NCBI GenBank assembly: GCA_951406725.2 | Contig: OX597831.1 | Location: forward strand, 65,968,001 to 66,032,000 | Length of the DNA stretch: 64,000 nucleotides | Reading direction: 5' to 3' | DNA from: Octopus vulgaris | Taxonomy: Eukaryota | Part shown: piece by piece, positions 18,074 through 61,166 of the stretch | Layout: every line of letters begins with the position of its first letter | How positions within the stretch are numbered: position 1 is the stretch's first letter | Made by a program: the position numbers and the translations under genes | The notes under the pieces: model-generated | The model's input: only the letters and a program-made list of their open reading frames with translations | Databases searched by the model: none | What the model was told of the DNA's origin: nothing

Positions 18074-18363
<290 letters not shown>

Positions 18364-18583
18364 TTAAAATTACTAAGTCTCTCTAAAAGAGAACAACGGC
18401 AGCGTTCCCGGAAAATAATAGTTATCGCCATACTAATATGGCATTCTTATAAAAATAAGAGTAAAGCTGTCCGCTTATTAGCTCCATGAGGCCATCGCTT
18501 TAAGTTAGCTATTTGATACACAAACTGTATCCATATAACCTTTGAACAAGGGAGGTCAGTCGCTCCACACTACTTGGCCAGCA

Positions 18584-18625
18584 GCTACAGACGCGTTTCG
18601 GGGTATTGCCCCTTTTCAATGCAGC
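18584..18625 (-). ncRNA. minimal type-I hammerhead ribozyme, U3-A8 core variant
   Basis: Minus: GCTGCA TTGAAAA GGGG caata CCCC GAAA CGCG TC TGTAGC; 6-bp stem I, palindromic stem III ACGCGU, GUC site. Confidence 0.8.
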
Positions 18626-18946
18626 GTAGCCAGACCAGTAGGTGTCGCTTCTGACAATCTCTGTTCAAAGGTTTTATTTACCTAGCTTCGGTGGAATACA
18701 TCCACTTGTTTTCAATAATAGAAATATTAAAATTACTAAGTCTCTCTAAAAGAGAACAACGGCAGCGTTCCCGGAAAATAATAGTTATCGCCATACTAAT
18801 ATGGCATTCTTATAAAAATAAGAATAAAGCTGTCCGCTTATTAGCTCCATGAGGCAATCGCCTTAAGTTAGCTATTTGATACACAAACTGTATCCATATA
18901 ACCTTTGAACAAGGGAGGTCAGTCGCTCCACACTACTTGGCCGGCA

Positions 18947-18988
18947 GCTACAGACGCGTTTCGGGGTATTGCCCCTTTTCAATGCAGC
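18947..18988 (-). ncRNA. second identical copy of the U3-A8 hammerhead
   Basis: Identical motif 363 bp away. Confidence 0.8.
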
Positions 18989-19197
18989 GTAGCCAGACCA
19001 AGTAGTGTGGAGCAACTGACCTCCCTTGTTCAAAGGTTATATGGATACAGTTTGTGTATCAAATAGCTAACTTAAGGCGATGGCCTCATGGAGCTAATAA
19101 GCGGACAGCTTTATTCTTATTTTTATAAGAATGCCATATTAGTATGGCAATAACTATTATATATATATATATATTTATATTTATATAACAATTGCAG

Positions 19198-19337
<140 letters not shown>

Positions 19338-19841: not shown

Positions 19842-19883
19842 GTCCCTTTCTGTAGAAGAGCATAGGCTCGAAACGTAAAAGAC
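19842..19883 (+). ncRNA. hammerhead-like motif in a short element (about 19785-19972) inserted in (TA)n
   Basis: gtcccTTT CTGTAGA a GAGC atag GCTC GAAA CG TA AAAgac; A6 is altered. Confidence 0.45.
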
Positions 19884-19973
19884 TTTTTCTATTCCTGAGC
19901 ATTATATTAATACATCTGTTTGTTTTGTACGCTACCTGTCTTCATCTTTTGTTTTTTTCATAAACTCTCCCTA

Positions 19974-25454: not shown

Positions 25455-26200
25455 GAGAAGTTTGTCTTCATGTGCCCCCTTACTCCGTATTTAAAGCATA
25501 TGTTGGTCTACCCTCCACCATGACTCTCAGTCTGGTCTCATCGGGCAGGACAATTTCTTCTGTCATTTTGTGGAGGTCAGGTAGGATGATAAGGACCATT
25601 ACCTCTAGGCCATGACCCCACCAATTGACCTCCACTGTCTTAGACATTTTCAATATTTTCACCTTCTCCTCTGTGTTGTAGAGGATGGCTGCCATAAGCC
25701 AGTCCAAGTTAATTTCGGGTGGCACTCTCCTTATTCTCACTCTGGCTGCGCGTCTGCCACAGTAAGTTGGCAAGAGTGCCCACTGTGCCGATTTCAAAAT
25801 GGAGTACTTCCTTGCTTTGTTCTCATTAACGCAGCATACCTCTACCATGCCAAATTTTCTTCCTCCGTTATAGAAAGTTGTCACTTCCATAACGTCTTTC
25901 AAACACTTCTCTATTTCTTCCACAGCTGCTATTTCGATTTTCCGTGTTGCCATGTTCAACGTTTGATAGGTTATTATTTTTCTTTCGAAATTTTCTGCCA
26001 CTTCTTTGGCAGGTGTCAATCTCAAACATCCTCCTGCCTTCTTCGATAGGTTGTCAAACATCTTATAATCTATATTTTTTCACCTCCAGCTCCTGTATTT
26101 GCAGCAGTTCCACTGTCAGGCTTTTATCTGTTACCACAGCATAACTGCCGGTCTGGGTCTGCATACTTCTGCTATTCACTGCTTCACCAATAATGGAAAA
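25455..26200 (-). pseudogene. non-LTR retrotransposon ORF1 (gag-like) remnant
   Basis: 193-aa ORF (25480-26061) with VRIRRVPPEI...LRVMVEGRP; after a frameshift, CFKYGVRGHMKTNF (decayed CX2CX4HX4C knuckle). Confidence 0.7.
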
Positions 26201-26616: not shown

Positions 26617-26783
26617 TACAACGGGCTTCTTTCAGTTTCCGTCTACCAAATCCACTCCAAAGGCTTTGGTCGGTCCGAGGCTATAGTAGAAGACACTTGC
26701 CCAAGGTGCCACGCAGTGGGACTGAACCCAGAACCATGTGGTTGGTAAACAAGCTACTTACCACACAGCCACTCCTGCACCTA
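26367..26783 (-). mobile_element. SINE family A
   Basis: Multicopy consensus. Confidence 0.9.
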
Positions 26784-27045
26784 TATGCTTTTTCCAGTGA
26801 CAAACAGTCACTGATCTCGAAAAAGGAGAAACAAGCAATAATAAATCTCTGATTGAGATGTAGACAGTAGCAGCAGACATCATGAAGTATATTTACCACA
26901 TAAATGTGAATGACTCATGTGGGATGATGCTACTGCAGTTTATAGCCCCAGGAAGACATCACCTCCAGCTGGCTAATGACACACTGTCTGTGCCCAATCA
27001 GTATTTGTGAAGGGAAACCATCGTTCCCATCTCTAGCCTGATGTG

Positions 27046-27086
27046 ATACACATGGACCTGGGTTTCTGGATAGTAACCCATCATCA

Positions 27087-27090
<4 letters not shown>
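27046..27090 (-). ncRNA. hammerhead ribozyme motif abutting (TA)n
   Basis: Minus: CTGATGA TGGG ttacta TCCA GAAA CC ca GG TC; core, stems II and III and GUC intact; stem I 5' arm runs into the TA tract. Confidence 0.6.
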
Positions 27091-27120
<30 letters not shown>

Positions 27121-41479: not shown

Positions 41480-41907
41480 GTGAACGGAAATGAAATTAAT
41501 AAAGGAGATAAAAACCTCATAGTAATAGTAAGTTTTAAAAACTGTGGTGGGGAAGGGGAATAACTTTAGGAATCTAAGAATCAGTTTCACAGAAAACGGA
41601 ATTTTCATGCGTTTATGTATTTGTTTTGTCGGATTCCTAAAGTAAAATCGTGTGTTGAAACATATTGTTGACATGTCAGGCTGGTATTTTTATTGTAATT
41701 TATTTATTTATTATTTGCAAAGTAGGCATAGGAGTGACTGTGTGGTAAGTAGCTTGCTTACAAACCACATGGTTCCGGGTTCAGTCCCACTGCATGCCAC
41801 CTACTGTAGCCTCGGGCCGACCAAAGCCTTGTGAGTGGATTTGGTAGACGGAAACTGAAAGAAGCCAGTCGTATATATGTATATGTAAATATATTTATAT
41901 ATTTATA

Positions 41908-42314
41908 TACTGTCACGTTCTTGTTAGATTGACAGTATACAACCATTCTATTGCCCCACCACCGTACATGTCTCTATGAGAGATTTAGAAATTCAATATT
42001 TCTTATTTTGATAATCAGTGAATAGACTTCACTGAGTATAGATATATACAATTACGAAGTCGAGACAAATATCACCGGTTGACCGGTGTCTGCTACTCTA
42101 GGCCGATGAAGGACAACGATCCTGAAACATGTGTCCCTAGATGCAGTTTCGGCAGCCAGGGGTGTTTGTCTCCCCTCCGTATATGTATATAAGGACACAG
42201 GGAAAAATGTGTCAAAGCCATCAGGAGGCGTTCGATGCTTCCTAGGGCTATACAGCGGTGGTGTACCCCCTACTGTCACGTTCTTGTTAGATTGACAGTA
42301 TACAACCATTCTAT
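41908..42314 (+). mobile_element. retrozyme-like element: 363-bp monomer with 44-bp terminal redundancy and one hammerhead
   Basis: TACTGTCACGTTCTTGTTAGATTGACAGTATACAACCATTCTAT at 41908-41951 and 42271-42314; no ORF. Confidence 0.75.
42097..42141 (+). ncRNA. type-I minimal hammerhead ribozyme (U4C)
   Basis: TCTAGG CCGATGA AGGA caacga TCCT GAAA CATGTG TC CCTAGA; perfect stems I and II, GUC site at 42135. Confidence 0.8.
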
Positions 42315-42465
42315 ATATATATATATATGTATAAAAAAATACAAACTGGGACAAGAACATTTAGAAGACAATACAAAAAACACGGACAGGACATTCGAAG
42401 CCATCAATCTTCAGTCAAGAACCGGATCATCCTCGCAATTTCAGCTGAGATATAGATATATACAT

Positions 42466-42531
<66 letters not shown>

Positions 42532-43011
42532 ATATGTTTGTGTGTCTGTGTTTGTTCCCCCAACTGGTGTGTTTACGTCCCCATAACTTAGCGGTTCGGC
42601 AAAAGAGACCGATGGAATAAGTACTAGACTTACAAAGTCGATTTGCTTGACTAAAGGCGGTGCTCCAGCATGGCCACAGTCAAATGACTGAAATAAGTAA
42701 AAGAGAGTAACTACATGCACTATATATTTGTTTTTCATTTCAGTTTTATTCTTCTTCTTATTTTAGTAATCTTTTGTCTGAAATTTTTCCTCACACGTCC
42801 TGTTGCCTCTTCAGTGAGTCTCTGTCCCATGTCTCCTCAGTCAAAGAATACAAAAATAAGAATAGTAACAAAGCTGAAGTGAAGAATAAGAAAGTAGTAT
42901 ATATGCTTAACTGGCAAAAAATAATAATAATAAAAACAACACCACCCTGAAATATAACAATATGAATTTTCATACTTAGGTGTAAAAATCTGATTTTAGT
43001 TATGCAACATG

Positions 43012-60886: not shown

Positions 60887-61166
60887 GGAGAACAACTTCT
60901 CCTTTCAGATAAAGTGTATCTACAATACACTCAACTGATTGACATGAGGGAACTTTGAGACAGACACCAGTGTTTTGACCTTGTCTTTTCAGTGACTCTA
61001 AACAAGAATGATGGTCTTAGTTTATTGAATGAATATGCTAATCATGTTGACTGGAGGTAGCTTTGACTGAAGAGACACACGCAAGTTGAAACACTAGTGT
61101 CTCAACGTCCTTCTATTTCAATGAATTGTGTTGTAAACACACATTGTCTGAAAAGAGATGTTCTCT
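60887..61166. mobile_element. quasi-palindromic element with two divergent hammerhead motifs
   Basis: GGAGAACA...TTCAGATAAAGTGT / ACACATTGTCTGAA...TGTTCTCT arms; motifs at 60954-60995 (-) and 61063-61105 (+). Confidence 0.65.
61063..61105 (+). ncRNA. canonical-core minimal hammerhead ribozyme
   Basis: TTGA CTGAAGA GAC acacgcaa GTT GAAA CACTAGTG TC TCAA; palindromic stem III, GUC site at 61101. Confidence 0.75.

Follow-up and report, generated by a model that had tools for sequence, protein, structure and literature searches.

The insertion at positions 41908-42314 of the window, the 64,000-nt stretch of Octopus vulgaris DNA analysed here, is probably a dispersed, non-autonomous, hammerhead-bearing retroelement (an animal non-LTR retrozyme) that was moved in trans by a Penelope-like element (PLE). 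The 44-bp repeat at its ends is best read as the 5'-truncated second copy of a 363-nt unit, i.e. a miniature pseudo-LTR (pLTR).

Anatomy and ribozyme of the 363-nt unit

Positions 41908-41951 and 42271-42314 are an exact 44-bp direct repeat with a start-to-start distance of 363, and the 44-mer contains an 8-bp hairpin (41908-41915/41930-41937, z -3.1). The outer TA and TAT of the 44-mer possibly come from the flanking (TA)n, so the share of the element itself is 39-44 bp. The locus amounts to 1.12 units and has one ribozyme. The unit has a GC content of 0.44 (44%) and no ORF of note; the longest frames starting with ATG have 34 codons on the plus and 85 codons on the minus strand. Since neither a reverse transcriptase (RT) nor a GIY-YIG endonuclease ORF was found in the unit, it does not qualify as an autonomous PLE, and the element holds no coding remnant. 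The flanks are the two halves of the abundant SINE of the window, which are separated by 649 bp here and by 15-90 bp in the 11 other pairs measured; this SINE and the other repeats appear similar to those of octopus genomes. An earlier, sequence-only reading of this DNA had described the exact 44-bp repeat, 363 bp apart and itself a hairpin, a single central hammerhead, the absence of an ORF and an insertion into the TA tract of a SINE; all four were confirmed. A second, unrelated insert of ~110 bp, present as a single copy in the window, lies in the same TA tract (42333-42445); its minus strand reads CTGAAGA ... GAA ... GTC, which recalls a degenerate minimal hammerhead and failed the descriptor. 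The features are compiled in Table 1.

Table 1. Coordinates in the window of the element, its parts, its flanks and its two relatives
Feature	Position	Strand	Basis
5' half of host SINE	41730-41870	+	15 further matches in window
(TA)n target tract, left part	41872-41909		sequence
Miniature pseudo-LTR (5'-truncated second copy of the unit's 3' end)	41908-41951	+	exact repeat; hairpin 41908-41937
Complete unit of 363 nt up to 3' end site 1, then (TA)n	41952-42314	+	repeat; loose ends behind 41951/41952 in other copies
Segment between end sites 1 and 2 (equivalent of the PLE 'tail'), 52 nt	41952-42003	+	loose ends behind 42003; 66% identity to 18355 unit
Closing stem, 5' strand, pairs with 42255-42263	41957-41965	+	P 0.99; 4/8 aligned pairs changed on both sides in 18355 unit
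GTG/CAC hairpin, kept in all three relatives	42015-42035	+	fold, alignment
Long rod enclosing the ribozyme	42043-42191	+	helices P 0.96-1.0; same rod in 18355 unit
Type I hammerhead of canonical form, CCGATGA core with C at position 4	42090-42146	+	descriptor; predicted cut after 42135
Hairpins 42194-42213 and 42216-42249, both present in all three relatives	42194-42249	+	fold, alignment
3' half of host SINE	42520-42715	+	sequence matches in window
Related insertion, 1.8 tandem units, period 363, plus inverted 5'-truncated piece	18357-19158	-	alignment, descriptor
Third relative, CTGATGA hammerhead with the 5' truncation within its stem I; abuts SINE	26783-27092	-	nhmmer E 1.4e-8, two-sequence profile

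The hammerhead on the plus strand is of type I, with a stem I of 6 bp (42097-42102/42136-42141), the core starting at 42103, a stem II of 4 bp, GAAA and a short, self-complementary helix III; the cut is predicted after C42135. Its descriptor was matched by none of 5000 shuffled elements and on average 0.0 times per window in 40 shuffled windows. Rfam gave no hammerhead match at the gathering score, and matches by E-value were artefacts of TA repeats. In family variants bases are inserted at 42129-42131 in helix III and its self-complementarity is preserved. The sequence-only reading had also asked whether C42104 is a consensus letter or a decay of U4. It looks like consensus: no variant at 42104 is among the 40 of 44 variant sites listed although shallower sites do appear, and C4 is therefore probably the family letter. 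U4C is a natural hammerhead variant with considerably lower activity in vitro (PMC3088659). The same 40 of 44 sites include no substitution in 42090-42146; the probability of a substitution-free ribozyme is 0.002 if none of the remaining four sites falls there and 0.23 if all do, and this result was not relied on.

As a linear molecule, the 407 nt have a predicted fold far better than that of shuffled sequences (z -6.9); the z of the circular fold is -6.6. The ribozyme is predicted to sit at the tip of the long rod, which would clamp both ends of a cleaved monomer. At eight variant sites in or facing the helices of the rod, six variants keep or gain a pair, one needs the variant of its partner, which was also seen, and one (42077) breaks a pair. 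The sequence-only reading had proposed an extra hairpin CACCGGT/ACCGGTG. The inverted repeat exists but the hairpin was rejected: its pairing probability is about 1e-5 because its bases belong to the rod, and the family majority letters at 42077 and 42079 break the inverted repeat.

Two further hammerhead-like motifs were noted on the plus strand of the window. That at 61063-61105 has a CTGAAGA core, a 4-bp stem I and a palindromic helix III and passes a relaxed descriptor; the family profile gave no match to it, and it is possibly the remnant of a different PLE. At 19845-19885, in a TA-flanked insert, a GAGC/GCTC hairpin is followed by GAAACGTA with CTTT/AAAG flanks, which looks like a degenerate minimal hammerhead. 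Five open frames of the window outside the element matched no Pfam family. A non-repetitive open frame of 199 codons on the minus strand (25480-26079) without a Pfam match may be a fragment of a retroelement ORF1.

3' ends of other copies and two relatives in the window

Part of the stretch was present in 20 of 24 sequencing runs, and half of its words or more in nine. Contigs of four runs were aligned at ≥85% (X1, 124; X8, 74; X2, 940; X7, 1334); organisms B and D were left out. The run type was guessed to be RNA for X1 and X8 and DNA for X2 and X7 (organisms A and C), and X1 and X8 were not used as evidence of expression. With 940 and 1334 contigs in the two probable DNA runs, the element belongs to a multi-copy family. 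Exact-motif scans gave no match in metagenome contigs and none in viral contigs.

The 3' ends of other copies cluster at two sites. At site 2, loose ends lie behind 42003 in at least 14 contigs of X2 and at least 13 of X7 and lead into an AT-rich consensus (agreement 0.52-0.56); among the loose ends listed, at least one X8 contig ends there too and at least three more end at 42006. At site 1, at least six X7 contigs (agreement 0.56) and at least one plus one in X1 have loose ends behind 41951/41952. The sites are 52 nt apart, with unlike, AT-rich flanks beyond each. The clustering is taken from the 24 of 244 loose ends that were listed, and further 3' end sites may lie beyond these. The segment between the sites holds a TCTCT/AGAGA hairpin and an end motif common to both relatives. 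The upstream end behaves differently: in other copies the sequence around 42265 continues into the 41908-41951 hairpin (in X7 at depths of 259.7, 97.7 and 18), and 41908 is thus not a fixed start. Furthermore, one X1 contig runs antisense from 42001 to 41923 and then sense from 42205 to 42282, with a loose end reading on to site 1; it is a head-to-head inversion with a different end site on each side.

Contig depth, which gives no copy number in repeats whose contigs may be chimeric, was summed along the unit. It is highest at 42228-42275 and 41924-42003, falls after 42003 and is lowest at 42036-42067. This profile is a hint that fits 5' truncation; depth cannot rank the parts, and copies diverged to below 85% give the same dips. 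A place where many molecules begin or end was not listed among the contigs. In at least three X2 contigs other sequence was seen upstream of 42037, and in at least one X8 contig 281 unaligned letters upstream of 42015; these joins may mark another subfamily or connect the unit to a longer partner element.

Two relatives of the unit lie in the same window. By BLAST, 41971-42003 matched the minus strand at ~18357-18392 (28/36), a match that spans the contig-mapped end site of the element and the physical end of the insertion at 18355. The two units align colinearly with 168 identities in 322 columns (52% identity; global z 17.5, none of 1000 shuffles as high), and the best tile scored 62.5 compared to a maximum of 37.5 in 1231 background tiles, the best of which is the third relative. 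Upstream of the ribozyme the homology is strong (z 11.3), and the downstream or 3' half alone gives a weak signal (z 2.0, 96/2000 shuffles); the linker after site 2 is homologous between the two units (z 3.1, 27/2000 shuffles) and its hairpin also occurs in the third. The order of helices is the same in both. Of 65 consensus pairs, 17 differ in both of their bases, a count from two sequences in which some pairs are doubtful. Measured from the cut, the end sites lie at 177 and 231 nt in this element and at 173 and 233 nt in the 18355 unit, and site 2 lies at 228 nt in the third relative. The sequence-only reading had called the 18355 unit sequence-unrelated and its equal period a possible coincidence. 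Both views have to be abandoned, since the unit is a homolog with the same helices, cut-to-end distances and 3'-end motif, and the shared period of 363 reflects common descent.

The 18355 insertion carries two hammerheads (18619 and 18982) exactly one unit apart, with a U3:A8 core as known from PLEs (PMC4209133). One of its ends is at site 2 and the opposite one at site 1, each in (TA)n, and its inversion junction is at paired positions of the rod. Its pieces differ at 4/281 and 4/163 positions, and the differences among the three pieces do not tell a circle from a tandem transcript. ACAATTGCAGCGTG interrupts the TA tract on both sides of this insertion in direct orientation (18310-18335 and 19185-19210), and the pair may be a long target duplication. 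The third relative (27091-26783) has the same hairpins and runs ~40 nt past its equivalent of site 2, so the 3' ends are clustered and not absolute. Five of the six ends of the three insertions abut (TA)n, and the sixth abuts ATAT followed by SINE.

Mode of insertion and nature of the template

Two internal 3' end sites with a tail between them, a partial tandem, inverted 5'-truncated copies and an AT-rich or microsatellite target are all found here, and all are traits of PLEs. PLE insertions are described as 5'-truncated, often with an inverted copy and a 30-40-bp tail at one end, and microsatellites are favoured (PMC8557442, PMC3846280, PMC8969392). A partial tandem with a truncated second copy, the pLTR, is their normal arrangement (PMC8969392, PMC8557442). 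The PLE of the anole, when purified, introduces nicks into both strands of AT-rich DNA. Its reverse transcription begins at two internal sites, both in an AC-rich stem-loop that lies downstream of the hammerhead, and the sequence between them is the tail (PMC11167929). Against PLE mobilisation speak the equivalent of the tail, which has 52-60 nt instead of the 30-40 bp described, the majority change at 42077 that breaks a pair of the rod, the canonical size of the hammerhead, the end of the third relative past site 2 and the weak alignment of the 3' half.

From the anatomy, the clustered ends, the homology and the targets we infer a PLE protein, its priming and an RNA that would act as follows. 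A source locus with more than one unit would be transcribed. The PLE protein would bind the structured end region and nick a (TA)n tract, as the targets and the published PLE biochemistry suggest, and reverse transcription would begin at either of the two sites at which 3' ends cluster. It would halt at a variable point, and most products would be shorter than one unit or inverted. For 41908-42314, synthesis would have started at site 1, crossed an intact cleavage site, completed the unit and stopped 44 nt further at the base of the hairpin.

This copy is longer than one unit and runs through an uncut ribozyme, which leaves three candidate templates: a tandem transcript, a circle, or a pair of RNAs linked by a template jump. 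The sequence-only reading had taken greater-than-unit-length cDNA as the product of reverse transcription around a circular RNA. Indeed, the cDNA is longer than one unit and crossed the cleavage site, but this does not single out a circle, because such a product also results from an uncut tandem transcript or from a jump between templates. Given mobilisation by a PLE, we lean slightly towards an uncut linear tandem transcript or a template jump, and a circle has a little under an even chance.

In its explicit form, the circular alternative states that a dimer is cleaved by both hammerheads and ligated to a 363-nt circle, and that the PLE enzyme, entering at the fixed sites, copies this circle for more than one turn. 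Taken as a whole, this course of events is plausible but not the one we favour. Canonical type I retrozymes gave abundant circles in coral, mussel and axolotl (PMC7229834). The length of 363 and the closed fold, the circular form of which scores as given above, are kept between units that are only 52% identical, the rod would keep the two ends adjacent after cleavage, the two ribozymes of the 18355 insertion are exactly one unit apart, and a circle would regenerate multimers that are otherwise eroded by 5' truncation. However, the core has C4, a change that lowers activity considerably in vitro (PMC3088659), and the copy at 41908-42314 with its one ribozyme cannot itself release a monomer. Moreover, the main substrate of the anole PLE was uncleaved RNA and ribozyme mutants left insertion unchanged (PMC11167929), and eight of nine frog retrozyme dimers did not cleave (bioRxiv 10.64898/2026.07.22.740005).

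A self-contained unit is itself called into question if the element is what remains of a terminal repeat of an autonomous PLE, or if DNA recombination excised it from a tandem array. Frog retrozymes are homologous to pLTRs (bioRxiv 10.64898/2026.07.22.740005), and the other sequence upstream of 42037 and 42015 is a possible link to a longer element. We consider such an origin improbable, as there is no coding remnant, the (TA)n flanks are clean on both sides, and in each of two separate insertions the unit returns to its own start after 363 nt. Since both insertions close at this length and share a homologous linker, the closed unit predates the divergence of the two units.

LINEs also yield 5' truncation and inversions, and the host SINE is abundant. 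Mobilisation by a LINE-type reverse transcriptase that targets microsatellites is nevertheless very improbable: the insertions have no A-tail or tandem-repeat tail, and two internal 3' end sites together with partial tandems are PLE traits (PMC11167929, PMC8557442).

The strong form of the circular alternative, in which the copies are free permutations of a circle and neither start nor end is fixed, was the check that the sequence-only reading had proposed. Variable 5' ends are indeed seen (41908 here; in the relatives ~19000 and 27092) and the terminal redundancy is as a circle would give, but among the 24 of 244 loose ends listed the 3' ends cluster at 41951/41952 and 42003, and these are also the sites at which the homologous 18355 insertion terminates. 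Free permutation is accordingly hardly credible. Finally, the exact match of the two terminal 44-mers might suggest a host target-site duplication or an assembly artefact, but both are practically refuted: none of 11 other SINE copies contains the 44-mer, which is present twice in the window, and family contigs cover it with variants of their own and continue past both sides.

Relation to known elements and meaning

The element resembles animal non-LTR retrozymes (PMC7229834, PMC7761336, bioRxiv 10.64898/2026.07.22.740005) in its non-coding unit (363 nt; 350-390 in mussel), a GC content of 44%, a type I hammerhead with a 6-bp helix I, a 4-bp helix II and a short self-complementary helix III, a stable self-paired fold and its occurrence as dispersed monomers or short tandems, with no LTR features seen. 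A ribozyme within a non-coding unit of ~150-450 bp, a GC content <50% and a self-paired predicted RNA, which define this class, are all present. Tandem ribozymes are a further mark of the class: the family is multi-copy, and this locus has one ribozyme while the 18355 insertion has two. It differs from the described animal non-LTR retrozymes in C4 as the apparent family letter and in its mapped ends with PLE footprints. Moreover, the three divergent relatives share an end motif and the order of helices, whereas a review describes such repeats as being without a conserved motif that points to a partner (PMC7761336). A plant-type LTR retrozyme, which has a type III hammerhead in each LTR, was rejected, as a single type I hammerhead lies outside the terminal repeat.

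With endonuclease-containing (EN+) PLEs (PMC11167929, PMC8557442, PMC3846280, PMC4209133) the insertions share the pLTR-type partial tandem, 5' truncation, head-to-head inversion, a one-sided extension, two 3' end sites downstream of the hammerhead and AT-rich targets without visible duplication. In contrast to EN+ PLEs as described there, RT and GIY-YIG ORFs are absent, the unit has only 363 nt, the extension is 52-60 instead of 30-40, and the ribozyme is canonical and not minimal; the hammerheads of animal PLEs are typically of the minimal form (PMC4209133). Non-autonomous PLEs of the MRC1 type in Chlamydomonas are likewise non-coding, with pLTRs and head-to-tail insertions (PMC8557442). According to the same source, most Chlamys elements are without a canonical hammerhead and their autonomous partners are known; the octopus element differs on both points.

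Longer-than-unit cDNA templated by a circle and mobilisation by PLEs have both been proposed before (PMC4209133, PMC7229834, PMC7761336), the latter from co-occurrence and, in a 2026 preprint, from pLTR homology (bioRxiv 10.64898/2026.07.22.740005). The class of retrozymes has been published, as have both hypotheses, so that this locus brings further support for them and no new system. A repeat annotation of octopus reports recently active Penelope families, and the word 'ribozyme' does not occur in its main text (PMC13282606). In the literature searched, no description of this family or of end-mapped retrozyme insertions was found; repeat libraries (Repbase/Dfam) and supplements may contain one. 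What is added here are end-mapped PLE footprints, i.e. two fixed 3' ends, a one-sided tail, inversions and TA targets, and a motif common to three divergent units at the main 3' end.

In sum, the locus supports the view that animal retrozymes borrow the machinery of Penelope elements; it does not show circular RNA as the template, and a central hammerhead between short redundant ends does not by itself indicate a circle. The end motif is a concrete candidate RNA element for tests with a PLE enzyme, and the unit would offer a minimal substrate of 363 nt. As a more tentative proposal, which we regard as rather unlikely in its entirety, the units may belong to an old lineage of 363-nt circular ribozyme RNAs, in which fold and size have been held while sequence drifted to ~50% identity and the cores to CUGAUGA, CCGAUGA and UUGAAAA, and in which the end motif would recruit the PLE RT at two entry points for rolling-circle reverse transcription. 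If true, this would name the cis element that links animal retrozymes to their partner, and it would make the model of the circle as intermediate testable with purified PLE protein.
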